Of a DNA stretch of 40,794 nucleotides, positions 3,845-26,495 are shown piece by piece. A program made the position numbers and the translations under genes. The notes below the pieces were generated by a model. It was not told the origin of the DNA and ran no database searches. It saw only the letters and a program-made list of their open reading frames with translations. Position 1 is the first letter of the stretch. Each line of letters begins with the position of its first letter. Origin of the DNA: a virus (Duplodnaviria; Caudoviricetes); IMG/VR virus record IMGVR_UViG_3300010048_000022, positions 1-40,794 of that record, one strand, 5' to 3'.

Positions 3845-3923
3845 TTGAACCGAGGGCACTTAAAAAGCGCCCTCCATTGAATTAATCAGCACAGCCGTGC
3901 AAAACACTAGAAAGAGCCTTGTC

Positions 3924-5093: not shown

Positions 5094-5127
5094 CGGCCAA
5101 TCCCCTTGCCTCCTGAAAGTACCTCCC

Positions 5128-6006
5128 ATGCGCCGCTTCACCGAGCCCGCGACCCCATTTCCAGGCCGCCTCAACCACTTCATAATAGCCGACTCCCTGG
5201 GCGAAATCGGAGATTTCGCCCGCACGTCAAATCTCAGACCAAACACATCCAGCCCTAATTGGGACTTCGGCCTCGGCCTCGAGAAGGCCATACAATTCTG
5301 CTTCACAGGTGACACCTCACAAGTCTCCAAATCGGACGAAATGCTTGAGCGCCTCGAGGCACACATCGAAATGCCCTCGACCCGAACACAGTGGATCGAC
5401 GATGTGGCCGGATACTTCCCAAACATTCCGGCCCACCTCGCAGGAGTGCCCGCCTCCATGCGGAGGCGGTCACGACAAGAAAGCATCTCAGCGCCCCTTG
5501 CCATCATCGTCGACCTCTCAATCTCCGCAGGCATCACCGCCGCGCAGGCCCAACGCCGAGGCATCACAATCCTCGCCCTCGCACGCGCACTCTCTGCCCG
5601 ACGCCCAATCGAACTCTGGGTGGGCGACATGGGCGCAGCCGACGAGAGAGCCGCCTTTGGCGGCTCTCGAAGCACGAACTGCGTCTCCATCTTCACGCGC
5701 ATCGAGACCACACCCCTCGACCTCGCTTCATCCTGCTATGCCCTCACCCACCCCGCCTTCCTCCGTCAAGTCCTCTTCCAACTCGAAGAGAAATACCACA
5801 ACTTCATGGGCGGCTGGCCTTTCCGACTCGGCCGCGCCCTCAAGCGCACCGAAATGGAGTCCCTTCTCGCGCCCGCCTTCCCTCAAGTAACCTCGACCCT
5901 TTGCATTCCCGGCCTCCATATCGCAGACGACACCGTCAACAACCCCGAGGCCTGGCTCATCCGCGAAATAAAACTCCACGATCCCCTAGCCCTACAGGAC
6001 GCCTAG
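5128..6006 (+). CDS. vWA/CobT-like partner of the AAA+ ATPase
   Basis: DDVAGYFPNIPAHLAGVPASM followed by MIDAS-like IIVDLSISAG; adjacent to MoxR-like ATPase. Confidence 0.65.
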   Translation: MRRFTEPATPFPGRLNHFIIADSLGEIGDFARTSNLRPNTSSPNWDFGLGLEKAIQFCFTGDTSQVSKSDEMLERLEAHIEMPSTRTQWIDDVAGYFPNIPAHLAGVPASMRRRSRQESISAPLAIIVDLSISAGITAAQAQRRGITILALARALSARRPIELWVGDMGAADERAAFGGSRSTNCVSIFTRIETTPLDLASSCYALTHPAFLRQVLFQLEEKYHNFMGGWPFRLGRALKRTEMESLLAPAFPQVTSTLCIPGLHIADDTVNNPEAWLIREIKLHDPLALQDA

Positions 6007-13105: not shown

Positions 13106-13334
13106 CACCAGCGCTGCCCTAACTGAGCCCTCGCCCGAGAGCATCTCGGAGCTATTCAATCGCGATCCCCTCTCCCTATCTTTGGTGGATCGCCGCCGCC
13201 TCATCGAAGAGCTGCGGGCTCAGGCCGCTCGCAATGCCGCCGCTGCTGCCGCGGGGGAGAAGCCAGGCCGCCCTTTAAAGTCATCCGACGGGCAGGTAGT
13301 CCGCATTTCGCAAAAGGCCGCAGACCTCCTATGA
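13098..13334 (+). CDS. Hypothetical protein (ends KAADLL)
   Basis: SISELFNRDPLSL..LIEELRAQ; overlaps both neighbours. Confidence 0.7.
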   Translation: MTDTSAALTEPSPESISELFNRDPLSLSLVDRRRLIEELRAQAARNAAAAAAGEKPGRPLKSSDGQVVRISQKAADLL

Positions 13335-14317
13335 ACAGCAACCTCGAACCAGTCGACAACTGGACCTTCAATCAGTCCTTCTCCTTTCAGCGGCCGCGCC
13401 TCCAGACGGCCCTCGACTCCACCTCGCTAGGCGAGTTCAAGACCTGCCCCCGCAAATACTACTACTCAATCCTCTGCGGCTATACCCTCGCTGGAGTCCA
13501 GATCGACCTAGAGTTCGGCTCGGCGGGCCACCGCCTCCAAGAGATCTACCACCTGGCTCGCGGCGCAAATGCCACCCACGAAGAGGCACTCGACTCCGTG
13601 GTGAACCACGCCCTAGTATCCACATGGGATCGGAAGTCTGGAGCGCCGTCGTGGGATGATGCCCAGAAGAACCGCCTCTCGCTAGTCCGCATGGCCGTCG
13701 AGTACTTCGATCACTACGAGAAGGAGGGCACCGGCCCCCGCACCGTCATCCTGGAGTCCGGCAAGCCCGCCGTCGAGCTAACTTTCGCATTCGACTCCGG
13801 CTACAGGGCCTCGACCAACGAGCCCATAATACTTTGCGGCCATCTCGACCGCCTCGTTCAATTCAATGAGGATATTTATGTCTCCGATCTTAAGACCACC
13901 CGCATTGCCCTTGGCACCTCTTACGCAGCTCGTTATACTCCAGATAATCAGTTCACTATGTATACTATTGCTGGGCGTGTTGCTCTGTCGGTCCCAGCAC
14001 GGGGAGTCCTCCTCGACGCGGTGCAGATCGGCGCAACATTCGTTCGCTTCGCCCGCTTCCCAATCCCTCGCCCCCAGCCAGTCCTTGACGAGTGGCTAAC
14101 CTCTCTCCCCTACTGGCTCAAGCAGATGGATGACTGCGCAGCTGCGGCCGAGAACATTCCGGCCGAGGAGGCCTACCCCCAAAATGACAAAGCCTGCCAG
14201 CTCTATGGCGGCTGCCAATTCCGCGATGTCTGTGCCCGCTCCCCCAGCACCCGCCAGCCCATCCTAAAAGCCAACTATAACAAGCGGCGATGGGACCCCG
14301 TAGGACAGCCCCGATGA
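13331..14317 (+). CDS. PD-(D/E)XK exonuclease (RecB/Cas4-like, Fe-S type)
   Basis: CPRKYYY, GHLDRL..VSDLKT, QFTMY, CQLYGGCQFRDVC. Confidence 0.85.
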   Translation: MNSNLEPVDNWTFNQSFSFQRPRLQTALDSTSLGEFKTCPRKYYYSILCGYTLAGVQIDLEFGSAGHRLQEIYHLARGANATHEEALDSVVNHALVSTWDRKSGAPSWDDAQKNRLSLVRMAVEYFDHYEKEGTGPRTVILESGKPAVELTFAFDSGYRASTNEPIILCGHLDRLVQFNEDIYVSDLKTTRIALGTSYAARYTPDNQFTMYTIAGRVALSVPARGVLLDAVQIGATFVRFARFPIPRPQPVLDEWLTSLPYWLKQMDDCAAAAENIPAEEAYPQNDKACQLYGGCQFRDVCARSPSTRQPILKANYNKRRWDPVGQPR

Positions 14318-14535
14318 CCACCATTACTCAAGCCTACGACCACCTCTCCAATATAGCCTCGGTCTCTATGGAGGAGGCATCGGACCTTGCCGCCTCTTAC
14401 ATGCGAGCCTTCAACATAATGATTGCCTCGTCATCGGACTCCGATGCAGCTTACAAAGCCAATCTCCGCCGCCTCTTCCTATCCCTCGAGACTGAAGGCC
14501 TCCAAGCCCGCAAGCACCATAGAGATTCCAAATGA
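14314..14535 (+). CDS. Hypothetical protein
   Basis: ATGA overlaps at both ends. Confidence 0.55.
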   Translation: MTTITQAYDHLSNIASVSMEEASDLAASYMRAFNIMIASSSDSDAAYKANLRRLFLSLETEGLQARKHHRDSK

Positions 14536-14744
14536 AGTTTCCAGGCCCCACAGGCAAGTTCCCTCTCGATAAACTCGACCCCAACGATGAGGGCGAGCTA
14601 GCAGTCGCCCTATCCACTGTGGGAGGCAAGGTCCGTATAGAATTCGGTACAAAGATCGCGTGGTTCGCAATGACTGCCGACCAGGCCATCGAGCTGGCTC
14701 ACATGATAATCCAGCGCGCCCACGCCATCAAGCGCGGGAACTAA
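14532..14744 (+). CDS. Hypothetical protein
   Basis: GKFP..DEGEL..VRIEFG..W pattern; coupled overlap. Confidence 0.7.
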   Translation: MKFPGPTGKFPLDKLDPNDEGELAVALSTVGGKVRIEFGTKIAWFAMTADQAIELAHMIIQRAHAIKRGN

Positions 14745-14795
14745 GTAACTCAAATTATCTTTAGGCCAGCTGGCCAATCAAGAGGAGAACGACGA

Positions 14796-15614
14796 ATGAC
14801 CGAAGCAAAGCCCCCTGATGCGCCTCCAGTCAAAATCCTACTTGTAGGAGACTCGGGCTCCGGCAAGACTGGCGCACTCGCCAGCCTCGCCCGTGCCGGA
14901 TACAACCTCCGCATTATGGACTTTGACAACGGCACCGAGATCCTTAAAAACCTCCTCGGTGAGGAGTTCTTTAAGCAGAAGGTGAGCGTGATGATCCTCC
15001 AGGATCATAGGGTCGCCAAAAAAGTCCCTGTCACAGTCGGCCAGCAAGTGATAGGCTACAATGTAAGAGCCATCCCCGCCAAAGCCTCTGCATGGCAGAA
15101 GGCTGTGGACAGCTTCTTTGGCTGGAAGCCGCCCGACGGCCCCGATCTCGGGAGCATTTACGATTGGACCTCCCGAGATGTGTTCGTCCTCGACTCCATT
15201 ACTCATGCGTGGCGCACCGCCCTCAGCTTCGTGCTCGCAATCAACAACCGCCCCGGTCAGCAGCCAACACAGCCCGAGTGGGGCACCGTGCAGGGCATGA
15301 TAATAGATGTGCTCTCCACCCTCTTCGACTCCGGCATCAAGTGCAATGTAGTGGTCTGCGCGCACATCGCCTACAACCAAGACCAGAACGAGATCATACG
15401 AGGTCTGCCATCCGGCCCTGGCCAGGCAATCAACAAAGACATTGGCACCTACTTCAATCACACGCTGCGGTGCGTGACAGTCGGCAAGCAGCATCGCATC
15501 CTGACGGAGACGGACGGCGTGGTCGAGCTAAAGACTGCCGCACCCGGCAAAGTGAAGCGGGACTACCCCATCGAGACTGGCCTCGCCGACTACTTCAAGG
15601 ACATCCGCTCATGA
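14796..15614 (+). CDS. Sak4/AAA_24-like P-loop ATPase (recombinase)
   Basis: LLVGDSGSGKT, MDFDNG, VLDSIT, VVVCAH; located between exonuclease and SSB. Confidence 0.8.
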   Translation: MTEAKPPDAPPVKILLVGDSGSGKTGALASLARAGYNLRIMDFDNGTEILKNLLGEEFFKQKVSVMILQDHRVAKKVPVTVGQQVIGYNVRAIPAKASAWQKAVDSFFGWKPPDGPDLGSIYDWTSRDVFVLDSITHAWRTALSFVLAINNRPGQQPTQPEWGTVQGMIIDVLSTLFDSGIKCNVVVCAHIAYNQDQNEIIRGLPSGPGQAINKDIGTYFNHTLRCVTVGKQHRILTETDGVVELKTAAPGKVKRDYPIETGLADYFKDIRS

Positions 15615-15835
15615 CCGAACATCGCTGGTCTGGTTGGCCGGGAGCGTGGTGCCTCGATTGCGGCTGTGAAGATCCGCACGAGATCGCTCTTGCCGATGGC
15701 AACTACATCGAGGTCGCCGACGACTCCGAGATGGGCTTCCACTTCGAGTTTCCCAATGTGGTCTCCGTCCCGTGCCCAGAGCCGGGCTCGAACCGCTTCA
15801 ATCCATATACGCAGGAGCCACGAAGTGACATCTGA
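15611..15835 (+). CDS. Small Cys-containing protein
   Basis: HRWSGWPGAWCLDCG; ATGA overlap. Confidence 0.6.
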   Translation: MTEHRWSGWPGAWCLDCGCEDPHEIALADGNYIEVADDSEMGFHFEFPNVVSVPCPEPGSNRFNPYTQEPRSDI

Positions 15836-16079
15836 CCAAGCTGATCAAGCACTCGATGCCATAAGAGAGGCCGAAGCCTCCCTTCTGGAGGCGAAACAGC
15901 AGCTCATTCGCAGGGTCGCCGAGCGCCCCTACAATGTGGACGCGATCTCGTTCGGAATTGGCTTCGCCCGCGGAGCCCTCTCCCGAGCGTCCGCGGTGCT
16001 GGGGATCAAATCCAACATAGCAGACATTCTGGATGGCCGCGAGGCCTCCCAAGAGTTTAACCCGCGAAGTGCGAGTTAA
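15825..16079 (+). CDS. Hypothetical protein
   Basis: GTG start, AGGAG SD. Confidence 0.55.
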   Translation: MTSDQADQALDAIREAEASLLEAKQQLIRRVAERPYNVDAISFGIGFARGALSRASAVLGIKSNIADILDGREASQEFNPRSAS

Positions 16080-16109
16080 AATGGGGCAGCTTGCCCAAGG
16101 AGAAGTAGA

Positions 16110-16538
16110 ATGGCAAATTTAGCAGAACTGATGAAGGGTCGCGTAGAGGATCTCGTCAAGGGTCCGAAGCCACTCCCAGTGGGAGACTATCCGGCCGTCC
16201 TTACCAAGTTCGAGCTGACACAGGCTCGCAACGAGGAGAAGACGCCGATCCTCCGCTGGACGGCGCGCATCCTCGATTGGCCCTCGGACATCGCTGAGGA
16301 GGATAAGGCGGGGATCGAGAAGATCGAGACCCGCACTATCTCCTGCGACTACTGGCTGCCGCTCGACTACAAGTTCGGGCGTCTGTGCCAGCAGTGCGGG
16401 CTGAAGGGCGAGATCACCGAGCAGACCAACTACGAGCTGACCGGCAAGCAGGTGCTCGCGGCGGTTCGCCACACAGTCTCAAAGAAGACTGGCGAGATCT
16501 TCGCAGCCGCGCAGTCCTTCATCGGCTCCGAAGCTTAA
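16110..16538 (+). CDS. Single-stranded DNA-binding protein (DUF669-like)
   Basis: PKPLPVGDYPAVL..LTGKQVLAAVRH; AAGGAG SD; follows Sak4-like gene. Confidence 0.65.
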   Translation: MANLAELMKGRVEDLVKGPKPLPVGDYPAVLTKFELTQARNEEKTPILRWTARILDWPSDIAEEDKAGIEKIETRTISCDYWLPLDYKFGRLCQQCGLKGEITEQTNYELTGKQVLAAVRHTVSKKTGEIFAAAQSFIGSEA

Positions 16539-16675
16539 TTTGACCGGCCAGTTGGCCGGTCAAATTAAAGGGGTGGTCAAAGCGAGCCCCCAAGCCTCAG
16601 CCACCCCCTAGAGCCTCTATCCCCGAGGCTCGGTTAGCCCAGGCCCCACAGCCTGGGCTATCTCCCCGAGGAGAC
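16535..16675. repeat. Perfect 16-bp inverted repeat plus hairpin cluster
   Basis: TTAATTTGACCGGCCA-GT-TGGCCGGTCAAATTAA (16535-16568), then GGGGTGG..CCACCCC, GAGCCTC..GAGGCTC, TAGCCCAGGC..GCCTGGGCTA. Confidence 0.8.
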
Positions 16676-16679
16676 GCCT

Positions 16680-16766
16680 ATGCGCCGCATCAGCTGGAAC
16701 CTCCTCTACATCCTTCATCGAAGGCGCTACGGCCGCCGTGATCGCCCACGCTTTAGGAGTTTGTGA
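16680..16766 (+). CDS. 28-aa Arg-rich peptide (not in ORF track)
   Basis: MRRISWNLLYILHRRRYGRRDRPRFRSL; GAGGAG SD; TGATG overlap with ParB-MTase. Confidence 0.45.
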   Translation: MRRISWNLLYILHRRRYGRRDRPRFRSL

Positions 16767-18157
16767 TGCCGACTGACGAGATCCCAATCGACCTCATCTG
16801 GGTCAAGCGCGACGAGCGCCAGCGGCGCAAACTCGAGCCCGATCCCTATCTGCAGTCTTCGATTAAGCGGGTCGGCCTCATTAATCCTCTTATAGTTAAG
16901 AAGGATTTCCAGCTCGTGGCGGGGGAACGGCGCTACGAGGCCTGCAAAGCGATTGGCAAAGCCTCCGTCCCAGTCCGCTGGTTCGAAGATCTGTCCACAG
17001 ATGAGGCATCCCTTATCGAACTCGAAGAGAACATTAAGCGGAAGGAGCTGACCTGGCAGGATCTGACGCTCGCAATCGCCGAGTATCATCGAGTCCACAT
17101 CAAGCTCGATCCAGAGTGGAACCAGCGGCGCAGCGCCGAGGCCCTCTCCCTCGATCCGGGCCACGTCAGCACCACCCTGCTTGTTGCGGCGCACATGAAA
17201 GACCAGCGTGTCGCAAATGCCACGAACCAGACCGAAGCTCGCAATTTGATACGCCGACGCAACGAGCGCGCTAACGACGCCGAGCTAAACTCCCTTGCCG
17301 AGCATGCCCGCACTCTATTCGCCCAGGCAGCGCAGCCCCAAGTTGGGATGCCCAATGGTGGCCCCAGTCTCGTACCGCCACTTGAGGCGGCACCCCCACC
17401 GGCCGTCTGGAGTGCGGAGGCCGTTCGCAATACCATCCTAGAGGCCAACTTCCTAGAGTGGGTGCGAGAGTATAAGGGAAGGCCATTCAATTTTATCCAC
17501 TGCGATTTCCCGTATGGAGTGAACGTCTTCGACGGGAGTGGCTACTTCAAGACCGAGGACATGGAGTCTTACGCAGACGACCCCGATGTCTTCTGGACTT
17601 TAACAGAGGCGCTCGTTAAGCACGCGGACAAGCTCATGTCTGCCAGCGCCCATCTAATCTTCTGGCTAACACCCAAACCTCAAGTCATGATGCGCTCCCT
17701 CCAGATGCTGACCAGCATCTCCAATCTGCAGTTCTATCCATACCCTTTAGTTTGGCACAAGTCCGACCTCACTGGCATCGTAGGCGACTCGCAGAGGTGG
17801 CCTCGCCACACCTACGAGGCCGCCCTCTTTGCCTATCGAGGCAAGCGCCCCCTCATCCACACCGTCCCAGACTCCTATTCGGGGCCAGGGGACCGCAAGC
17901 TACATCCCGCTACGAAGCCGGAGCCCATGCTCCGGCATTTCTTCAGTTCACTGGTAGACGAGCATACGCGCCTCTTCGATCCGACCTGCGGCTCAGGCGC
18001 TGCCCTGCGTGCAGCCGAGTCCCTCGGAGCGAAGCCAGAGAACGTACTCGGTCTTGAAATGGAGCCGCGCTTCGTACAGAACGCTCGCGATGCGCTACAT
18101 CATGCGCGCCTCAACGCAACAGCCCACGTTCTAGCTAAAGCATCCGAGGTGATCTAA
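16766..18157 (+). CDS. ParB-domain / N4-N6 DNA methyltransferase fusion
   Basis: GLINPL..LVAGERR..EENIKR (ParB) plus HTH; DFPY (motif IV), HPATKP, FDPTCGSG (motif I), beta-class order. Confidence 0.85.
   Translation: MPTDEIPIDLIWVKRDERQRRKLEPDPYLQSSIKRVGLINPLIVKKDFQLVAGERRYEACKAIGKASVPVRWFEDLSTDEASLIELEENIKRKELTWQDLTLAIAEYHRVHIKLDPEWNQRRSAEALSLDPGHVSTTLLVAAHMKDQRVANATNQTEARNLIRRRNERANDAELNSLAEHARTLFAQAAQPQVGMPNGGPSLVPPLEAAPPPAVWSAEAVRNTILEANFLEWVREYKGRPFNFIHCDFPYGVNVFDGSGYFKTEDMESYADDPDVFWTLTEALVKHADKLMSASAHLIFWLTPKPQVMMRSLQMLTSISNLQFYPYPLVWHKSDLTGIVGDSQRWPRHTYEAALFAYRGKRPLIHTVPDSYSGPGDRKLHPATKPEPMLRHFFSSLVDEHTRLFDPTCGSGAALRAAESLGAKPENVLGLEMEPRFVQNARDALHHARLNATAHVLAKASEVI
17342..17362 (+). 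repeat. Dispersed 21-bp motif copy 4 (ParB-MTase linker)
   Basis: GTTGGGATGCCCAATGGTGGC. Confidence 0.85.
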
Positions 18158-18369
18158 TGGACCACTATCGGTATGCCCGAGATGCCCGCCACTGGCAAGC
18201 GAGGGCCGAAGAGCTTCGCACCCTCTCCGAGACCTTCAGCGACGAGACCCGTCATATAATGCTCCGCATCGCTGCGGACTACGAGCGGCTAGCCTCGCTG
18301 GTGGATGTGCCACGAGCCTACAACAAGCTGCTGGGTCGCCTCGCAATGGGGCCAAATGGAGACATATGA
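18157..18369 (+). CDS. Small hypothetical protein resembling rhizobial chromosomal proteins
   Basis: HWQARAEELRTL..MLRIAADYERLA. Confidence 0.65.
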   Translation: MDHYRYARDARHWQARAEELRTLSETFSDETRHIMLRIAADYERLASLVDVPRAYNKLLGRLAMGPNGDI

Positions 18370-18725
18370 TGCCCGACGAAGAAGAGTATTTTGATCTATC
18401 AGATCCTAATATCCCTGTATTCAACATGGAGCTGGGGGAGCTGCTGCGTGAGGAGGGAACGGAGGCTGTTAAAGCCTCTCACGCAGAGTGGTTCTCCCGT
18501 GCATGGGAGTATGTTCTCAATTTGCCGGTTGGCTGGGTTGGGCTGCCGGAGGATTGGCGGCCTCCCATCATATTCAGGCATGGGCCACCGCACGACTTCC
18601 ACGTATGGGGTTCCCTCACTCTGAGTGCGATCCGCGCCCACCTCATAGAGGAGACGGGCATCCGGCGCAAAACCCAGAGCGTAAGCTCCCACGCCGCAAA
18701 GGGCGTCGAGTACAGGAGAATATGA
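18366..18725 (+). CDS. Hypothetical protein
   Basis: ATGA overlaps; GGAG SD. Confidence 0.65.
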   Translation: MMPDEEEYFDLSDPNIPVFNMELGELLREEGTEAVKASHAEWFSRAWEYVLNLPVGWVGLPEDWRPPIIFRHGPPHDFHVWGSLTLSAIRAHLIEETGIRRKTQSVSSHAAKGVEYRRI

Positions 18726-18994
18726 TGGCCGAGCGCATGTGGCCCATCGAGCCTCAGTACGCTGAGAGTATGAAGGTGCTGGTTCGCGCCATCGACGAAT
18801 GCTTCAATGGGGAGGCTCGAGGAGCAGATCGCAAGACTGGCTTCGTCCTTCTGGTATTCCCGTTCGGTGACAGCTTCGACGGTCGCTGCAACTACATCTC
18901 GAATGGAGCGCATCGAGGCGACATCGTCCGTCTCTTCAAAGAGCAGATAAAGCGCTTCGAAGAGGACCCAAGTCGGGACCTGCAAGATGGCTGA
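18722..18994 (+). CDS. Conserved phage hypothetical protein
   Basis: GFVLLVFPFG..RCNYISN. Confidence 0.7.
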   Translation: MMAERMWPIEPQYAESMKVLVRAIDECFNGEARGADRKTGFVLLVFPFGDSFDGRCNYISNGAHRGDIVRLFKEQIKRFEEDPSRDLQDG

Positions 18995-19193
18995 GCTAAC
19001 CTCCCTAGAGATCGAAGTGCTAGAAGAGTGTGCAGGGCAGAGGCCACCTCGCGTCTGGGGAGCGGCCCTCGGCGCAGCCCTGGAATTTCTTCGAGGCTCG
19101 GGCTACATTAACAGAGAAGGGGAGCCCACGAAGAAGGGCCTCGACTACCTGGAGGCGCAGAAGAATGAGCCTCGTAACTCAGAGTCACGATGA
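18987..19193 (+). CDS. Small winged-helix-like protein
   Basis: ALEFLRGSGYI..PTKKGLDYL. Confidence 0.55.
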   Translation: MAELTSLEIEVLEECAGQRPPRVWGAALGAALEFLRGSGYINREGEPTKKGLDYLEAQKNEPRNSESR

Positions 19194-20337
19194 CAAGGGT
19201 TGGGCTGGCTCTACCAGCCCACGTCTTCTCATTGTTGGAGAGGCGTGGGGCCAGCACGAGGCCGAGCGCCAGACTCCATTCTGCGGGGCGGCGGGCGCTG
19301 AACTCACGCGAATGCTCTTTCAAGTGATCGAACCTGAGCCAGAAGTTAAGGAGGCCATGCGAGACTACTCAAACTGGTGGGTAGTTCGTGACAAGTGGCT
19401 TGCTACGCACCACATTGCGCTGACGAACGTCATCAATGAGCAGCCACATAACAACGACTTCGATCACTTCTGCTGCAGCAAGAAGGAGCTTCCAAGTGAC
19501 TATCCTCCGGTTCCCTCCCTCTCCAGGGGGAAAGTCGCCTACCTCCGACCCGAGTATCTGGGTCAGCTTAGTCGCCTTCGAGACGAGTGCGCCAGATCAG
19601 CCCCGAACTGTATTGTTCCCGTTGGGGCGGTTGCCACCTGGGCATTCCTTGGAAGAAGTGACATTAGCAATGTCCGTGGAACTACGACAGTGGGCTCGGC
19701 GAGCGGGGCTGCTCCGGGAGTGAAAGTGCTGCCCACCTACCACCCCAGTGCAATCATCCGCGGCCAGTGGAAGTGGCGAGTGATTGTGATTGCCGACCTC
19801 ATTAAGGCCCTTAAGGAGTCTACCAGTGCAGGCCTCGTCCGCCCCGCCCGAGTCGCGCTCGTCAATCCCACCATGCAGGAGATCGACGAGTGGGTCAAGA
19901 TCGCCCTCTCGGAGGCCCGAAGGACCTGCCCTCTGGCTGTTGACATTGAGACAGCGGGTTCACAGATTACTTGTGTCGGGTTTGCCGACAGTCCCAACCG
20001 AGGCATCACAATCCCCTTCCGAGACCGCAAAGGCTTCCGCTCCTACTGGCTCTCCATCAACGAGGAGCTGCTTGCGTGGGGCTACGTCGAAGACCTCCTG
20101 AAATGCGGGCGGCCCCTCGTCTTCCAGAACGGCATGTACGATATCCAGTTCCTGAGTCGGATGGGCTTCAACCTGAAGAACGCCCGCGAGGACACTATGC
20201 TCCTCCACCATTCCATCTACCCCGAGATGCAGAAGAGTCTCGGCTTCATGGGGAGCCTCTACACCAACGAGCAGAGTTGGAAGCTGATGGGGCACCACCG
20301 CGCTACCAAGACCAAGGGAGAGAAGCTTGACCAATAA
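19165..20337 (+). CDS. UDG-like domain fused to partial 3'-5' exonuclease (N-terminal part of split PolA)
   Basis: IVGEAWG, PFCGAAG, PTYHPSA (family-4 UDG-like); ExoI VDIET, ExoII FQNGMYD, DTMLLHH; no ExoIII; GGAGG SD. Confidence 0.85.
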   Translation: MSLVTQSHDDKGWAGSTSPRLLIVGEAWGQHEAERQTPFCGAAGAELTRMLFQVIEPEPEVKEAMRDYSNWWVVRDKWLATHHIALTNVINEQPHNNDFDHFCCSKKELPSDYPPVPSLSRGKVAYLRPEYLGQLSRLRDECARSAPNCIVPVGAVATWAFLGRSDISNVRGTTTVGSASGAAPGVKVLPTYHPSAIIRGQWKWRVIVIADLIKALKESTSAGLVRPARVALVNPTMQEIDEWVKIALSEARRTCPLAVDIETAGSQITCVGFADSPNRGITIPFRDRKGFRSYWLSINEELLAWGYVEDLLKCGRPLVFQNGMYDIQFLSRMGFNLKNAREDTMLLHHSIYPEMQKSLGFMGSLYTNEQSWKLMGHHRATKTKGEKLDQ

Positions 20338-20377
20338 GCTCGTTCACGATTTGTTCTCAGTAAGAGGAGAAAAAAAC

Positions 20378-20761
20378 TTGACCACTTCGAAAGAACTTAC
20401 GCAGGAGCGTCACGCAACGCATGGCGACTTCACCGACGATGCCACTACCAGCCAGGGCCTAAAGGCCGTTATTCAGAACAGCAAGAACTGGACGCGCTTC
20501 ACCCCAGTCCAGAAGGAATGTCTGGAGCAGATGATGACCAAGATCGGCCGCCTCTGCTCTGGAGATCCGAACTATCCCGATCACTGGAGAGATCTTTCGG
20601 GCTACCCCTACCTCGTGGTTGAGCGACTCCCCAAGGTCGCTCCCCCTGACATGAGTGGTATCAAGCATATGGCTCCAGCCGTCATGGACCCAGCGGGGCT
20701 TGCACCCCTCGAGTCAGACTTACGGAGTGCGATCAAGCATTTGAATGGGCAGAAGGAGTGA
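20378..20761 (+). CDS. DUF6378-like protein
   Basis: ERHATHGDF..KIGRL..GDP..DHWRDLSGY; TTG start with GAGGAG SD (alternative 20327). Confidence 0.7.
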   Translation: MTTSKELTQERHATHGDFTDDATTSQGLKAVIQNSKNWTRFTPVQKECLEQMMTKIGRLCSGDPNYPDHWRDLSGYPYLVVERLPKVAPPDMSGIKHMAPAVMDPAGLAPLESDLRSAIKHLNGQKE

Positions 20762-21042
20762 AAGCCACCCAAGCTCTCCTAGTTGCCTGTCTCCTCTGGC
20801 CCAGTCCCGTCTGGGCCAGAGGTTGCCATCGCTTCCGCGTCTGGAACTATCCATACCCACAACGCTGCTCTGTAGCCTTGGCCGAGCTAAAGCTGCGGCC
20901 AAGGCTACAGATCCCAGTTCCAATTGCATCGTTTCCCTTACCCTTCTTGGACGATATTGTCTGGGAGAGCAATGCGTACATCCCGGCTGAGGAGCTGGGA
21001 AGGCTGAGGGCCATAGCCCTCCTAAGAGGAGCGAACCAATGA
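20758..21042 (+). CDS. Hypothetical protein with signal-peptide-like N-terminus
   Basis: MKATQALLVACLLWPSPVWA|RGCHRF; overlaps at both ends. Confidence 0.5.
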   Translation: MKATQALLVACLLWPSPVWARGCHRFRVWNYPYPQRCSVALAELKLRPRLQIPVPIASFPLPFLDDIVWESNAYIPAEELGRLRAIALLRGANQ

Positions 21043-21446
21043 ACACACAGCCCATAATAAAATCATATACGGAGCCACCAATGCCCGGCTCTGGCTACTG
21101 GTATCTGGCAGGGCCTTACTCTGATGACCCAATGGGCCGCTACGACGAGCACATCCGAGCGCTAGCCCACCTAATAAAAGCTGGTATTCATGTCTACTCT
21201 CCTATTGCCCACTGCCATAGTGTGGCAGCGCGCTATGGTCTGCCAAAGGATGCAGCCTTCTGGGAAGATTATAATTTTGCGATGATTAGGCCCTCGAATG
21301 GGCTGATCGTCCTCCTTCTCCCTGCTTGGGAGAAGTCTAAAGGGACTGTAGGCGAAATACGCTATTGCAAAGAGTGTGGGATGCCTGTTTGGAGCCTTGA
21401 GCCACCGAGCGTTGATAATCCGTTTCGGTGGTCAAGGCTCGCATGA
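21039..21446 (+). CDS. DUF1937 / nucleoside 2-deoxyribosyltransferase-like protein
   Basis: YLAGPYS, VYSPIAHCH, LPAWEKSKGTVGEI. Confidence 0.75.
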   Translation: MNTQPIIKSYTEPPMPGSGYWYLAGPYSDDPMGRYDEHIRALAHLIKAGIHVYSPIAHCHSVAARYGLPKDAAFWEDYNFAMIRPSNGLIVLLLPAWEKSKGTVGEIRYCKECGMPVWSLEPPSVDNPFRWSRLA

Positions 21447-22963
21447 AGATCGAGACAGACAAACTCCAGCCAAGCGACCTTGATGCCGAGACTGAGCACC
21501 AGACGTATTGCGCCCTGGACTCTATGCTCACGCTCGAGATTTTAGCGGCTATCAAGGAGCGACATTCTCACGCCGAAGGCGTGATCTACTCTTTTGAGAG
21601 AGCGCTTCAAGCGCCGCTCCTCGAAATGTCTATGCGCGGCTTCTACATAGACGGCATCGAGCGCCATCGCCTCGAGAACGTCACAAAGGAGCGTGTCAAA
21701 GAGGCCCGTAGCCTCCTTAATGAGCTGGCGTGGGCTGTCTGGGGCAAGGAGCTTAATCCGCGTTCACACGCCCAGCTCGCCGAGTTCTTCTATAAGCGTC
21801 TGCAAATTCCGGAGGTGTGGCTCACCTTTAAGGGGGAGCGCCGCCTCTCCGCGAACCGGGAGGCTCTCGAAAAGATCGACGAGTATCTCTATGCGAGGCC
21901 GATCGTCTCTCTCATCCTGCAATGTCGCGACCTCTATAAGCAGCTGGACGTTTTGACAGAGGAGATTGATGGAGATGGACGACACCGAACTTCATACAAT
22001 ATCGGCGGCACAGAGACTGGCCGCCTCTCTTCCTCGACCAGTGTTCTTGGAACAGGTGGCAACGCTCAGAATATCGCTCCTGAACTACGGCGTGTCTTTG
22101 TATCCGATCCTGGCTTCCGCCTCTGCTCGATCGACCTGGAGCAAGTTGAAGCAAGAGATGTGGGTTTTCTATGTGGTACACTCTTCGGAGACTGGTCCTT
22201 CTTGGACAACTGTGAGAGTGGAGATCTCCATACCGCAAACGCAATGCTTTGCTGGCCAGAAAAAAAGTGGCCCAAGGGAAATATGGCAGGTTGCCGTGAG
22301 CTTGCCGAACATACAATCGGGTATAGAGATTGGTCACTCCGCGACCTTTCTAAGCGACTGGGACATCTTTCCAACTACAGCGGAACTGCATGGACAGCAG
22401 CCCGCGTCCTGAAAATCCCGCTGCATGTCGCCGTCGATTTCCAGAACCGCTACTGTAGAGGAGCGCGGTGTGCCTACCCTGCCCTCCAGCGCTATTGGGA
22501 GTGGGCGATCTCCCGCCTCCAGCTAGAGGGTTTCATCACGACTCCCTTCGGACGCACGCGGCATTTCTTTGGTGATCCGAAGGCAGGCGATACTCATCGG
22601 GAGGCTATTGCCTTCAGTTCGCAGTCTATGACTGCGGATCGCACGAACCTGTGGCTGTGGCGTACCTGGCACAAAGAGCGTCGGGTCCAGCTGCTTGCCC
22701 AGACACACGACTCCATAACTTTCCAGTTTGCGGAAGAGGAGGACGCCGATGCTATCATTTCTACTGTATTGGATCTGCTTCATATTCCTCTCTTCGATCC
22801 TAAGACTGGTCGCAAGTATGTTGCGCCAGGCGAGGCGAAGATCGGCTGGAATTGGGCTCCCTACCATGAGAAGAAGAACCCCGGAGGCCTGACGAAGTGG
22901 AAGCTGGGTAGGCCGGACCTCCGTGTCCGGCCCACCCCGTCCCAGAGACTTGGACTTGCCTAA
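21443..22963 (+). CDS. polA: Family A DNA polymerase, catalytic part starting with ExoIII helix
   Basis: YCALD (ExoIII), TETGRLSS, motif A DLEQVEAR, motif B RDLSKRLGHLSNYSG, motif C THDS. Confidence 0.92.
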   Translation: MKIETDKLQPSDLDAETEHQTYCALDSMLTLEILAAIKERHSHAEGVIYSFERALQAPLLEMSMRGFYIDGIERHRLENVTKERVKEARSLLNELAWAVWGKELNPRSHAQLAEFFYKRLQIPEVWLTFKGERRLSANREALEKIDEYLYARPIVSLILQCRDLYKQLDVLTEEIDGDGRHRTSYNIGGTETGRLSSSTSVLGTGGNAQNIAPELRRVFVSDPGFRLCSIDLEQVEARDVGFLCGTLFGDWSFLDNCESGDLHTANAMLCWPEKKWPKGNMAGCRELAEHTIGYRDWSLRDLSKRLGHLSNYSGTAWTAARVLKIPLHVAVDFQNRYCRGARCAYPALQRYWEWAISRLQLEGFITTPFGRTRHFFGDPKAGDTHREAIAFSSQSMTADRTNLWLWRTWHKERRVQLLAQTHDSITFQFAEEEDADAIISTVLDLLHIPLFDPKTGRKYVAPGEAKIGWNWAPYHEKKNPGGLTKWKLGRPDLRVRPTPSQRLGLA

Positions 22964-22983
22964 CCCCGCAGGGGAGTGGGGAA

Positions 22984-24201
22984 GTGCGTACAACAAAGAC
23001 GAACGCCGATATAGTCGGGCTGTTCAATCAATACACAGAAGGCCTCCCATCGTGCCCGATGTTTCGGGAGTGGTGCGGGATCACTCTCGTTGCTGGAGCT
23101 ATGGAGCGTAGAATATGGACTCAGGTCGGCCGGATGCAGTCGTTTGCCAACCTCTTCGTGATGCTGGTGGGTCCGGCGGGCACCGGCAAAGGAGTCATCA
23201 ACTCTGTGAGAGACTTGTGGAAGGGAACAATGAACGGAACTCAAGCAATATTTAATGTTGGTATAAAGAGTTACACGAAAGCATCACTAGTGGACGACCT
23301 CCACGATGCGAAAAAGACGTACGTAGCTGATGCAGGGGAGCCGCTCATCTATCACAGCCTGCTGTTGGCGTCGGAGGAGTTCCCAGTCCTGTTTCCGCGG
23401 TTCGACTTCGAGCTGCTCGCCTTCATGTCCGACATATGGAACTGCGATGCGGTCTATGATGAGAGACGCCGCACTTCTGCAATCAAGTCCGTCTCCATCT
23501 CCTATCCAATTATTAATGCAATCATGGGCTATCAGCCCGCTGTGATGGCGCAGACTATGCCCAGCACCGCCTGGGAGCAGGGATTTATGCGCCGGACCAT
23601 CATGATCTGGAACGGGACTGTGGAGGTGAAGTCCCTCTTTGAGTCGGACCCGCTCGACGAGGAGCTAGCCAAGGCCATCCACCGTCGCCTCTACCAGATT
23701 AGCACGCTCTACGGCGCAATGAAGTGGGAGTCCAAAGCTGCAGCCATGCTAGACATATGGCATACCGAGGGTGGGCAGCCCCGTCCCGATCATGTCCGCC
23801 TCCAATCTTACAACAACACCCGATCACACCTTGCAATCAAGCTGGCGATGATCGCCAGCATCTCCGAGTCCTCGGATATGGTGATCCGCGAGCACCACAT
23901 AGGACGTGCCCTCACTTGGCTCATCAAGGCCGAGTCCCTGATGCCAGAGATATTCAGATCTATGACGGGCGACTCTGACAGCGCCCTCATCACGGAGCTT
24001 CATGCCTCCATGCTCGTTATCTACAAGAGTAGCCACAAGGCTATTCACAACCGCTTTATCTGGGATTTCCTCAGTAAGCGGACTCCCTCCCACAAGGTCC
24101 AACACATAATTGGGGTGATGGAGCGTGCGGGCTACATAGTGCGGGACAGCAAGCTGCCAGAAATGTGGATACCCATGTCCAACCAGGGCACTCCCCATTA
24201 A
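22984..24201 (+). CDS. DUF3987-like P-loop helicase
   Basis: NLFVMLVGPAGTGKG, SEEF, GFMRR, IKLAMI; C-terminal winged-helix-like segment. Confidence 0.75.
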   Translation: MRTTKTNADIVGLFNQYTEGLPSCPMFREWCGITLVAGAMERRIWTQVGRMQSFANLFVMLVGPAGTGKGVINSVRDLWKGTMNGTQAIFNVGIKSYTKASLVDDLHDAKKTYVADAGEPLIYHSLLLASEEFPVLFPRFDFELLAFMSDIWNCDAVYDERRRTSAIKSVSISYPIINAIMGYQPAVMAQTMPSTAWEQGFMRRTIMIWNGTVEVKSLFESDPLDEELAKAIHRRLYQISTLYGAMKWESKAAAMLDIWHTEGGQPRPDHVRLQSYNNTRSHLAIKLAMIASISESSDMVIREHHIGRALTWLIKAESLMPEIFRSMTGDSDSALITELHASMLVIYKSSHKAIHNRFIWDFLSKRTPSHKVQHIIGVMERAGYIVRDSKLPEMWIPMSNQGTPH

Positions 24202-26495
24202 GGTGTGGAGCCGGGGATCTTGCCGAGGGCCGATGGTGTCTGCAAAAGAGCATTCCTGACGGAGCGCGGGTGCATAATAGCTTCCTGCGTCCCGGCTGTG
24301 AGGCCGAGGCCTGCCCACGGCAGCAGGTGGTTGGCTATAGTCCCAATCGAGCTGCCACCGCCCAGTTGCATAGCATGGGCCAGCCTCTCAGGATTGTTGC
24401 CCCAGGACCCCACTGCTCCAAGGCCGCCGCTGACCCAGTTCCACAGCGGAATGTTGCTGAAGAACCCCGACCCAGAGTAGCGATCCCTGTAGGTCTTTGC
24501 GTTCTCCGCGGTGGCGTCGGCCGCCTGTGTCAGCTCCTTGTTCTTCGCAACTGCCGCATTCTTTCTGGTTACGACGGCCCTTCCTTCCTGCATCCTGTTA
24601 GCGATAGTCGTATTCCTGTTGACGGACTCCATTGCGCCCTTGTAGTTTTCACCAGACGTCTTGGCAACTTCCGACTCCGTTTTGTAATTCTCGTCAGCTG
24701 CTGTCTTAGCCTTAATGAGAGCCTCATCCGCGTTCTTCTGTCGGTCGATGGCAGCCTGCACTTGAGTGGCCTTCCCCGGCCCTGCCAGTGCAGTCTGGGC
24801 GTCGGGATGCAGCGCCTTCCAACCCTCGGGGTCACTCCTGATCTTCGCAGAGGCGAACTCGTTCAGGCCCTTTGCCAGCTCCGGCTCCGTTCTTAGCTTT
24901 GCTAACTGGTCGCCCGCCTTGTCCGTCCCCTCTAGCAGATTTTTGATGACGTCCGCCGATCCCAGCGTCTCCTGACCCGCATTCTTCGTGGAGATTGCCT
25001 TGCTCGTCAGCCCCACCTTTGAGTAGAGGTCAGTCATCTGCCCATTATAGTCTTTGAAGGCTTTCAGTGCCTCCGGCCCGACCTTTGCTGCTCCTGCTTC
25101 AATGTCCGACGACAGCGACTTATAGAGTTCGGCGAGCTTCGCTCGATCGAGCCCATTCACCGTCCCAGGAGTCCCAAGCGCATCGCCGATCCCGCTCCGC
25201 AGGATCTTCACGTTCCTCAGGAGAGTGTCGGGGGCATCTCCGACGGAGCCGCCCTGTCCAGCCACCACCTTATCCAGTGCGCTCTCCATCTGGGCTGGGA
25301 GCTTGCCGCGCAGGGTCTTCATGAGCCCCTCCAGCTCACCAGCGTCCTGCCACCCATTCTTGAGAGTGCTCGTGAAGTTTGTGAGCTTCATGGGCGTGTC
25401 GTCGGGCAGCTTCTCGTACATGCCCTGCTCGATAGCCTTGGCCTTCTCGGGAAAGCTCCCTGGCACCGGCACTCCATTCTCGTCTACGCCGTTCACCCAA
25501 TTCCTGAAATGCTGCTGTACCTTGGGCGCGGCTGTCGCTTGGTCGTAAGAGGTGCCGCCCACCGCCTTAGCCGCTGCCTCCCGATCCGCCTCCGAGGCCC
25601 AGCCCTCCTTCATGTGAGCGTCCTCGGCCGCATCATAGAGGCCCTGCTTCTTGGTCGCCGCATCCTGCAGTAGCTGATCGGTGTGACGCTGCGCCTCAGA
25701 GGCTATGTCCGCCCTTAAGTTGGCCTGACTCGTTCTGTAGTCGGGGCCTTGATCCTTGAACTTCTCGGCCGCAGCCTTCGACGCATCCAGTTCACCAGTG
25801 CCTTGAAACTCCTTGAGTGCATTCGCGGCCTTCTCTGCTGCCGGACCCGCTTTCCTATACTCGTTCAGGTCGAGTCCTAGGCGAGCTAGTGCTGGTCCAC
25901 CGAACCCAGTTGCCATAGAGGTGATCCATGAAGGCAGCCCTGTCAGCTTCTCTACGGCCCCACCTGCGAGTTCGGGGCCAAACGTCCACCCACCCAGAGT
26001 ACCAATAGTACCGAGAGCTGTCTCCTCTGGGGCAGCAAGACCTGCACCTATAGCTAGGGGAACGGCTGCTGTCCCGTATCCGAGTGCTCGCCCCATGTAG
26101 TCGGACCAGGTCTTTGGCTGCCAGTCAGGATTGTACAGATTGTTCTTCGCTGCCGAGGCCTCCCAGTCGGCAGGAGTCGAAGTAGGCTCCCATGAGGCAG
26201 TAGGCTGCCCCGTTAATTTGGAGATCCCCTTATTGATGAGGCCTGGCAGCCCCAGTAGGCCTGACCCCCCTTCGACAACCCCCTGCTTGAAGGCAGTTCC
26301 GAAGGAGGAGTCTCCCTTATTCTGATTCTCCAGAGTCTTGCGAGTCTTGTCATCGAGCAGTGACCTCGCCCGTGCCGCTCCATCAGACTCCTGCTGTAGA
26401 GGCGTGGTCGGCGGCTCCGTCGGAGTCTCCGTGGTAGTTGTAGGAGCAGCGCCTCCACCCAGGAGGCTTCGGGCTCGCTCTTCGCCTGGCGTCAT
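24198..26495 (-). CDS. Large DNA ejection / internal virion protein
   Basis: 765 aa, Ala/Gly-rich helical with hydrophobic Gly stretches; last gene of ejection cluster. Confidence 0.65.
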   Translation of the reverse strand: MTPGEERARSLLGGGAAPTTTTETPTEPPTTPLQQESDGAARARSLLDDKTRKTLENQNKGDSSFGTAFKQGVVEGGSGLLGLPGLINKGISKLTGQPTASWEPTSTPADWEASAAKNNLYNPDWQPKTWSDYMGRALGYGTAAVPLAIGAGLAAPEETALGTIGTLGGWTFGPELAGGAVEKLTGLPSWITSMATGFGGPALARLGLDLNEYRKAGPAAEKAANALKEFQGTGELDASKAAAEKFKDQGPDYRTSQANLRADIASEAQRHTDQLLQDAATKKQGLYDAAEDAHMKEGWASEADREAAAKAVGGTSYDQATAAPKVQQHFRNWVNGVDENGVPVPGSFPEKAKAIEQGMYEKLPDDTPMKLTNFTSTLKNGWQDAGELEGLMKTLRGKLPAQMESALDKVVAGQGGSVGDAPDTLLRNVKILRSGIGDALGTPGTVNGLDRAKLAELYKSLSSDIEAGAAKVGPEALKAFKDYNGQMTDLYSKVGLTSKAISTKNAGQETLGSADVIKNLLEGTDKAGDQLAKLRTEPELAKGLNEFASAKIRSDPEGWKALHPDAQTALAGPGKATQVQAAIDRQKNADEALIKAKTAADENYKTESEVAKTSGENYKGAMESVNRNTTIANRMQEGRAVVTRKNAAVAKNKELTQAADATAENAKTYRDRYSGSGFFSNIPLWNWVSGGLGAVGSWGNNPERLAHAMQLGGGSSIGTIANHLLPWAGLGLTAGTQEAIMHPRSVRNALLQTPSALGKIPGSTP

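Follow-up and report, generated by a model that had tools for sequence, protein, structure and literature searches.

A soil phage family A DNA polymerase is split over two genes, with the cut between ExoII and ExoIII, and probably forms a heterodimer with a two-chain proofreading site

UDG-like domains are fused to PolA in SPO1-type phages, and DnaQ-like exonucleases need acidic residues from ExoI, ExoII and ExoIII. In the stretch of soil phage DNA analyzed here (40,794 nucleotides, IMG/VR record IMGVR_UViG_3300010048_000022; hereafter the window), a family A DNA polymerase is found as two separate intact ORFs, with the break between ExoII and ExoIII and three overlapping ORFs in the 1105 bp gap between the halves. 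This raises the question how a proofreading site that is distributed over two genes could be brought together. The features are listed below; counts refer to a non-redundant set of 79 split loci (<90% identity, median pairwise identity ∼45%).

19165..20337, + strand: N subunit gene, 390 aa; family-4 UDG-like domain and first part of the 3'-5' exonuclease (ExoI, ExoII)
19207..19824, + strand: UDG-like domain, ∼residues 15-220; E26, E32, F39, N88 and H193 present, KCRP position without Fe-S cysteine
19942..19950, + strand: ExoI D260-x-E262 (D260-I-E262-T); both residues in 79/79; in the predicted interface
20122..20142, + strand: ExoII FQNGMYD (D326); Q321, N322 and D326 each in 79/79
20284..20337, + strand: new C-terminal tail of the N subunit, 17 aa; pLDDT <50 from residue 378
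20327..20761, + strand: gap ORF 1, 144 aa from TTG; phrog_16943 (function not assigned); weak DUF6378 match below the curated cut-off
20758..21042, + strand: gap ORF 2, 94 aa; no match in family searches
21039..21446, + strand: gap ORF 3, 135 aa; DUF1937/DUF4406, nucleoside 2-deoxyribosyltransferase-like, phrog_355; ATGA-coupled to the polymerase gene
21443..22963, + strand: C subunit gene, 506 aa; new N-terminal head, ExoIII helix, PolA thumb, palm and fingers
21443..21460, + strand: new N-terminal MxIIxT-type head; T5 in 72/79; in the predicted interface
21506..21520, + strand: ExoIII Y22-C-A-L-D26 (YxxxD, DEDDy type); Y22 and D26 each in 79/79
22133..22135, + strand: polymerase motif A aspartate D231; 79/79
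22340..22378, + strand: polymerase motif B R300-K304-H308-Y312; R300, K304 and H308 each in 79/79, Y312 in 75/79
22706..22711, + strand: polymerase motif C H422-D423; D423 in 79/79
22984..24201, + strand: DUF3987 primase/helicase-like gene (context); fused relatives have a similar gene after the polymerase

An earlier note on this DNA had placed ExoI and ExoII on 19165-20337 and ExoIII on 21443-22963, with three ORFs within ∼1.1 kb between them; all coordinates were re-derived and found to be correct. The two halves could also be confirmed as independent intact genes, as had been claimed: GGAGG lies 9 nt upstream of the ATG of the N gene, and the C gene starts in an ATGA overlap with gap ORF 3. 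Overlaps of stop and start codons chain the genes throughout the cluster. The whole stretch is present on single contigs in two soil runs, which differ from it at 0 and 2 positions and show neither an indel nor a joint, and either run may be the source of this DNA. No RNA run is among the sequencing runs listed for the stretch, which has no bearing on expression. The N-terminus of gap ORF 2 is hydrophobic and, judged by eye, signal-peptide-like.

The UDG domain of the N protein matched PF03167 (E 1e-12), and this part of the model aligned with T. thermophilus UDG 1ui0 (Z 19.6, rmsd 3.4, 165 residues aligned). Both the fold and the motifs of family 4 (GE-x-x-G-x-x-E, PF-x-G, N and HP) are present. 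The residues E26, E32, F39, N88 and H193, which we take to be the functional ones, are kept together in only 61 of the 79 split loci. At the KCRP position, presumably the site of the [4Fe-4S] cysteine in family 4, this cysteine is absent, and column 92 of the 79 loci holds L in 42, F in 15, E in 4 and T in 4. The UDG domain probably still recognises uracil. Residues 226-382 of the N model align with residues 324-482 of Klenow (Z 13.7, rmsd 3.8, 148 aligned), and the matched region stops short of the Klenow ExoIII, which we take to be Y497/D501. The model also matched PDB 9qhs, a single-chain UDG-PolA, at E 1.6e-10. The last conserved motif is WK373, with the stop 17 residues downstream.

In 77/79 loci there is a start codon at the N stop from which a further gene runs, compared to 24% of control windows. 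In the window, the DNA of the tail includes the ribosome-binding site (20314-20320) and the TTG start of the next gene. A conserved K-[RK]-[DE]-[DE] tail was considered as a protein docking motif and rejected as the main cause of the conservation, because the DNA of this tail is the ribosome-binding site of the downstream gene (SD core in 64/79 vs 19% of controls) and the tail has low confidence in the model. N residues beyond 375 are not named in the predicted interface, which is evidence neither way on docking.

For the C protein, the PolA domain matched PF00476 above the cut-off (E 1e-27) and the model aligned with Klenow 1kln (Z 30.9, rmsd 3.7, 414 aligned). Motifs A (D), B (R-K-Y) and C (HD), together with TGR and the Klenow-type fold, identify it as a family A DNA polymerase. 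The TGR arginine R194 is invariant in 79/79 loci, and H308 occupies the Pol I F762 position (B3), at which H is also found in most fused relatives. All DnaQ-like DEDDy motifs (ExoI DxE, ExoII D and ExoIII YxxxD) are present in 79/79 loci, and their four carboxylates and the ExoIII tyrosine are invariant despite being spread over two chains.

The earlier note had proposed a survey of relatives for the same break point with variable inserts, and this is what was found: 113 of 119 distinct loci are cut at the same seam, the second start being followed by YxxxD at a distance of 17-28 residues, and the gap contents vary. Scans confirmed at least 503 and at least 553 split-like stretches. Judged from these sequences, hundreds of phages share the arrangement as a fixed feature, and the cut is old and fixed across the clade. 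In Caulobacter phage Kuura, a plaque-forming isolate (PMC9959647), the same cut is present with two other genes between the halves. In 8/8 loci from bacterial genome bins the N ORF likewise ends after WK; host assignment via these bins was rejected, as the 8 matches sit in unrelated metagenome bins. None of the 151 IMG/VR loci with both halves, which were fetched by the split proteins, carried the fused form, so that the close relatives are not all fused.

A fused sister group could be collected, consisting of Microcystis phage Mel-JY34, Desulfofustis phage LS06-2018-MD01, vir526, ctMlz233, P0122 and P0123. These share the domains, a similar gene neighbourhood and, in most, H at B3, but have a continuous linker of 16-22 aa (YWKDEGK...W-x-YN) where the split clade has two new ends. 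In a profile comparison, the split halves tile fused P0122 end to end (residues 1-332 and 337-777). The N tails are 9-17 aa and the C heads 17-28 aa long, with a combined median of 36 aa vs 17 aa for the fused linker. As a single-protein query of viral contigs the C chain gave no match and alignment queries were needed; a broad fused-protein alignment held no conserved stretch for searching, and a four-row alignment was usable. In polymerase trees the split proteins form a single clade (39 rows, SH 99), which lies among fused relatives (16 rows, SH-aLRT 99), and the clade is weakly supported in the N-half tree (SH 62); the sampling is biased, as split rows were fetched by likeness to the window and fused rows by fused-linker patterns. 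In only 38/79 loci do the N and C halves have the same nearest neighbour, and the pairwise identities of the halves correlate at rho 0.66; the discordant neighbours could reflect recombination between halves or just noise.

Modelling the two products as a complex, as the earlier note had suggested, resulted in a score of 0.84, compared to 0.00 for the best of 3 controls. This mark is reached by 116/157 solved pairs and 2/215 mismatched pairs, and the pass may stem from likeness to solved single-chain PolA structures, the two chains being halves of a split gene. Between runs, contacts agreed by at least 89%, partner pLDDT was at least 86 and >200 contacts were confident. The predicted interface comprises N residues 258-260, 262 and 319-325 and C residues 1-6 and 19-38. 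A DEDDy exonuclease needs its residues in one two-metal site, and the predicted interface includes D260, E262 and partner residues 19-38. There is good support for a heterodimer in which the proofreading site is composite, because the seam is fixed, the catalytic residues of either chain do not vary and the model packs the ExoIII helix against ExoI/ExoII. It is concluded that the two genes, cut between ExoII and ExoIII, encode proteins that likely form a constitutive 1:1 heterodimer, with no splicing involved, in which the proofreading site would draw on both chains. As the cut runs through this site, proofreading likely works only when both proteins lock together.

One ancient gene fission in a surface linker before the ExoIII helix would account for this arrangement, and translational coupling along one operon would supply both chains. 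The first long helix of the C chain (residues 19-38) is predicted to pack into the exonuclease sheet of the N chain, with further contacts predicted for its new N-terminal residues 1-6. The freed position would have become an insertion slot, often taken by a deoxyribosyltransferase-like gene. Such a gene lies within the gap in 41/79 split loci, and two such families never occur together. A homing-endonuclease origin of the split could not be demonstrated, with an HNH cluster in just 3/79 gaps.

That the halves are rejoined by RNA splicing, protein trans-splicing, ribosomal bypass or read-through is very improbable. Introns are common in phage polA and one has been suggested for the MEP401 split (PMC10580990), and in one relative (L070) the N stop is followed immediately by an in-frame ATG. 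However, gap length lies anywhere between -4 and 2793 bp, all three phases occur (35, 38 and 41 of 114), and the gaps contain 0-8 genes, mostly ordinary ones (154 ORFs in 96 clusters), all of which argues against splicing or bypass. In the 5/79 loci in which the halves are directly adjacent, four geometries (+2, 0, -1 and -4) are seen, and the tails and heads are too short as intein halves and jointly longer than the fused linker. In the window nothing reached the Rfam gathering score, and a search of 19900-21900 gave a single match at chance level (E 0.37); this blank is weak because there is no positive control, and Rfam was equally blank for 12 other loci, the majority of which are interrupted at another place. 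An assembly error or a decayed gene, for which it speaks that the assembly is from uncultured material and that the two spanning contigs may be its source, has a probability close to nil: it is already refuted by the clade-wide pattern, in which the same cut recurs in 113 distinct loci and a cultured phage, with intact ORFs and invariant catalytic residues.

Association of chains in which the cut crippled proofreading, or an N chain acting mainly as a separate uracil glycosylase, would be consistent with the database label of the N protein (uracil-DNA glycosylase), its Pfam exonuclease match below the Pfam cut-off and the residues directly upstream of ExoIII, which depart from the fused consensus. 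This is nonetheless improbable, as invariant catalytic residues at a median pairwise identity of ∼45% are hard to explain without exonuclease activity, and the N tails hold no conserved substitute ExoIII motif (loose matches in 7/79, none with the tyrosine). Of the earlier note's reading, the heterodimeric PolA with a composite site is supported by the fixed seam, the invariant residues and the complex model, while tuning by subunit ratio is not. In such a regulated heterodimer the C chain alone would be a low-fidelity polymerase and the UDG-exonuclease chain an exchangeable editing module, the supply of which tunes fidelity or processivity. The genes are up to 2.8 kb apart in relatives, the C chain alone is modelled confidently (pLDDT 93), CCPol is described as functional with only three exo helices and a different partner, and the S-SBP1 halves have been proposed to be regulated differentially (both PMC10201439). 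Against it, the stop/start overlaps run through the whole cluster, the halves are adjacent in 5/79 loci, the predicted interface, with >200 confident contacts, has the ExoIII helix packed into the partner sheet, and PolAs are reported to depend on the exo domain for stability (PMC10201439). A crude scan at chance level turned up neither a promoter-like site on the + strand of 16500-24500 nor a terminator-like site within the gap. Regulation is thus unlikely, and a constitutive 1:1 enzyme is the likelier reading. A wider form of the regulated heterodimer, of similarly low probability, would be switchable proofreading, in which an exonuclease-minus C chain with an unusual His at the 762 position polymerizes alone, the UDG-exonuclease chain docks as editing module and completes the active site, and the deoxyribosyltransferase-like protein, as a third component, clears unwanted nucleotides from the pool. 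Fidelity would in this case depend on the supply of the subunits or on N chains exchanged between co-infecting phages.

The split arrangement would be a natural two-part polymerase, to which proofreading and uracil sensing could be added, or from which they could be withheld, in trans. With Kuura as a cultured member it is testable now, and the natural cut point could guide split-polymerase design. The split also explains a common mis-annotation, in which the first half is entered either as hypothetical or as a uracil-DNA glycosylase in its own right, and the second as an 'exonuclease-less polymerase'.

The split through the proofreading site is a new variant beside the already published PolA splits; neither this cut nor His at 762 was described in the literature covered, mostly outside subscription journals. 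In S-SBP1-like T7-like cyanophages, a family A polymerase is likewise fissioned into two proteins predicted to reassemble (PMC10201439). There, ExoI (DLE), ExoII (HNIIGYD) and ExoIII (YCIQD) share one chain and the active site is therefore undivided; the genes overlap, a UDG domain is lacking and B3 is tyrosine. The S-SBP1 cut thus follows a complete exonuclease domain of a T7-like polymerase, whereas ExoIII here lies on the polymerase gene. In MEP401-type OM43 phages, PolA is group-wide in two ORFs with a small gene of no assigned function between them, but the cut is inside the polymerase domain and the exonuclease on the first ORF (PMC10580990). In neither of these does the cut fall inside the proofreading active site. 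CCPol-MP of staphylococcal mobile elements is a PolA that keeps the last exonuclease helices and binds its partner through them (PMC10201439); the remaining exo domain is lost there and an unrelated protein taken instead, whereas here it is kept with its catalytic residues intact. The order family-4 UDG, 3'-5' exonuclease and PolA is shared with the single-chain UDG-PolAs of N4-like cluster 17, SPO1-like and SP15-like phages (phiLo/YerA41, PDB 9qhs) (PMC10201439; PMC13697223), which are one polypeptide, compared to ∼390 + 500 aa on two genes and H at B3 in the split clade. Cluster 17 is described with a degenerate UDG and F at B3 (PMC10201439), unlike the H308 (79/79) and mostly kept UDG residues found here. 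The SP15-like enzymes carry large inserts and are >1000 aa long, unlike the split clade, and UDG activity is reported as demonstrated for phiLo and YerA41, thus for SP15-like enzymes only (PMC13697223). Outside PolA, essential phage enzymes in two genes with foreign DNA between them are known from split gp43A/43B PolB and T4 gene 60 (PMC2988022) and from Aeh1 nrdA-a/nrdA-b, split by mobE (PMC3045599). These belong to other enzyme families. In the present phages the cut site is not marked by a homing endonuclease, and a very large clade has the cut as a fixed trait. Aeh1 NrdA-a/NrdA-b is a precedent for a working composite site, with catalytic residues on both chains and new tails that matter (PMC3045599).

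The window covers much of the genome of a tailed phage. Genes for head closure, DNA ejection and tail fibres share one strand, the replication genes occupy the opposite one, and near-identical DNA is present in soil metagenomes. The polymerase locus contains the following genes:

19165-20337, P0001 (N subunit), 390 aa: UDG match (E 1e-12) and a PolA exonuclease profile match below cut-off (positions 11-129 of 173)
21039-21446: deoxyribosyltransferase-like gene in the gap, just before the polymerase gene
21443-22963, P0002 (C subunit), 506 aa: PolA match, with YCALD as residues 22-26

The AlphaFold models of the N and C chains were confident (pLDDT 91 and 93, respectively). Residues 226-382 of the N model could be superposed on Klenow 324-482 (Z 13.7), and the alignment stopped before ExoIII (Y497/D501 in Klenow). 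In a profile comparison the two halves together covered one fused relative, in which UDG, exonuclease and PolA form a continuous gene, from end to end. The PolA recognized in the earlier note is indeed split inside its exonuclease. Two soil contigs cover the whole stretch without indels, but are possibly the source of the window itself.

For P0001, 744 homologues of 214-683 aa were found, and most among the 120 matches listed were ∼380-400 aa long; a search for longer proteins gave just 7 matches with 27-34% identity, which is weak evidence. Scans of viral contigs with half-by-half alignments confirmed at least 503 and at least 553 stretches, from which the 80 best per half went into the locus set. 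The 172 sequences compared (171 loci and the window) included 158 with both halves and 119 that were distinct, namely 115 split loci and four fused ones (GenBank records L011-L014). The break lay at the seam between ExoII and ExoIII in 113 of the 115 split loci, with differing gap content; of the other two, L144 had no start that the script could call and L015 is cut beyond ExoIII. The fused form was found in none of the 151 IMG/VR loci carrying both halves, and in genome-bin loci the N ORF stopped after the WK motif in 8/8 cases, one with frameshifts. The cultured podovirus Kuura (PMC9959647) is cut at the same place; two unrelated genes separate its halves, the first of which carries the annotation "hypothetical". 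Judged from sequence, the split polymerase is a real, old and widespread feature. One N-subunit homologue, P0052, has an additional N-terminal PF14216 domain, and a copy on a 4.7-Mb contig (L258:5917-9672) has frameshifts in both halves, reflecting a decayed prophage or sequencing error.

A pattern scan on the fused linker identified 80 further loci, none of which was cut at the seam and 14 of which were interrupted elsewhere. In a FastTree phylogeny of the polymerase part with 39 split and 39 fused rows, about half of those available, the split forms were one clade among the fused ones (SH 99). An IQ-TREE mixture model with 16 split and 18 fused rows also recovered the split clade (SH-aLRT 99), and the N-half tree gave the same grouping with a support of only 62. 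A single fission out of a fused ancestor would be the simplest reading of these trees, with the reservation that the split and the fused rows were each collected through similarity to a query of their own kind. The fused linker from WK to the ExoIII tyrosine measures 16-22 aa (60 proteins), whereas split forms have a tail of 9-17 aa on the N chain and a head of 17-28 aa on the C chain, so new sequence has been gained at both ends.

Gap length ranged from -4 to 2793 bp in 114 loci (median 555, all three phases); the 1105-bp gap of the window is occupied by three overlapping ORFs. In the non-redundant set (80 loci below 90% identity minus L015, leaving 79; median pairwise identity about 45%), gaps held 0-8 ORFs each, in total 154 in 96 clusters, and the halves were adjacent in five loci, using four geometries. 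Because lengths, phases, ORF content and adjacent geometries vary, an intron, a hop or read-through is disfavoured, and the gap pattern appears to fit none of them. No Rfam match was found, in a search that had no positive control. A start codon opened a gene at the N stop in 77/79 loci, compared with 24% of control windows. The N chain ends in a conserved K-R-D-E tail, which is largely a translated ribosome-binding site (64/79 loci versus 19% of controls). One gene of the DUF7768, DUF1937/DUF4406 or nucleoside 2-deoxyribosyltransferase families was present in 41/79 gaps, never two together, and in 36 of these 41 it ended at most 60 nt from the polymerase start; the same families occurred within the 4-kb flanks of only 2/61 fused loci. 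These counts, which are inflated by shared descent, indicate that the slot is filled non-randomly. The link between DUF7768 and DUF1937 is only moderate (hhalign probability 76, E 2e-5). Other cargo (L007, L008, L025, L088) includes a PNKP-type HAD phosphatase, a dCTP deaminase/dUTPase, a TSCPD domain and an HNH endonuclease.

The exonuclease residues, D260, E262 and D326 in the N subunit plus Y22 and D26 in the C subunit, were each conserved in 79/79 loci, as were polymerase residues D231, R300, K304 and D423, and no conserved ExoIII substitute was found in the N-subunit tails of these loci. The complex model of both chains scored 0.84, a value attained by 116/157 solved pairs and 2/215 mismatched pairs, and the best of three controls scored 0.00. 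Runs shared at least 89% of contacts, with partner pLDDT of at least 86. The surest predicted contacts connect C 20-34, the ExoIII helix, to N 258, 273-274, 277, 280-282, 319-320 and 344-347, among others; the predicted interface also includes D260, E262, residues 1-6 of the new C head and UDG residues 200-206. Since split-gene halves can pass through likeness to solved PolA structures, the model argues for compatible geometry and not for binding. Of the earlier proposal, the heterodimer with a shared proofreading site is upheld to that extent: residue invariance and the complex model make a constitutive heterodimer quite probable, in which two separately encoded chains would assemble and residues of both would build a composite two-metal proofreading site. 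Tuning of fidelity or processivity by subunit ratio, also proposed there, is unlikely, as the two genes are translationally chained, the ExoIII helix by prediction belongs to the domain of the partner chain, and the exo domain is reportedly required for PolA stability (PMC10201439).

All five UDG residues E26, E32, F39, N88 and H193 were kept in 61/79 loci, including the window, and the Fe-S cysteine was missing in a residue check of the split-locus alignment. The motif B 762 (B3) position (window 22364-22366) is a histidine in 79/79 split loci and in most fused relatives. This residue has perhaps been noted elsewhere; no mention was found in the literature searched, including papers on that position, and the available texts checked give F, Y and L only.

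The first split PolA was reported in S-SBP1-like phages (Czernecki et al., PMC10201439). However, the S-SBP1 exo gene carries all three exonuclease motifs, whereas ExoIII lies on the polymerase gene in the window clade. Active UDG was shown in single-chain SP15-like enzymes (Missoury et al., PMC13697223), and the word "split" is absent from that text. MEP401-type phages differ in being cut inside the polymerase domain (PMC10580990), a composite active site is already proven for Aeh1 NrdA (PMC3045599), and a split gp43 was noted in PMC2988022. No comparable polymerase was found in the available text of PMC11348598 and PMC7886860, and no description of the ExoII/ExoIII cut in the literature searched; the supplements of PMC10201439, PMC13697223 and PMC9959647 may list members. 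Phage enzymes encoded in pieces are already known, and the one described here is a PolA whose proofreading site is probably shared between two chains.

A second shared break, at about C-profile position 213 and directly past the NxQN motif, occurs in relatives that are continuous across the exonuclease seam (L175, L191, L214, L221, L222, L225, L226, L234, L235, L248 and L249), and no Rfam intron was matched in the nine tested. A third lies at the UDG/exonuclease boundary, with about 237 nt between ORFs (L229:4678-4915; also L231, L232 and L233). L015 (ctLwi270, MW202554.1) is an independent UDG-PolA split whose break follows ExoIII; its gap contains a small Cys-rich ORF (L015:2986-3138), and its UDG retains the KCRPP motif. 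In-frame insertions of ∼280-300 aa in polymerase genes (L168:6992-9328, L256:7365-9791, L259:7504-10014) are possibly inteins; Pfam identified none in L168, the one tested. Upstream of the polymerase, the window encodes a fusion of a ParB-like domain and a DNA methyltransferase (16763-18157), and a similarly annotated gene is located upstream of the polymerase of fused relatives. At 13331-16538 the replication module contains a PD-(D/E)XK exonuclease, a 142-aa gene without assignment and a Sak4-like annealing protein, and at 3897-6006 a CobS-like AAA ATPase (phrog_249) is followed by a DUF7192 gene.
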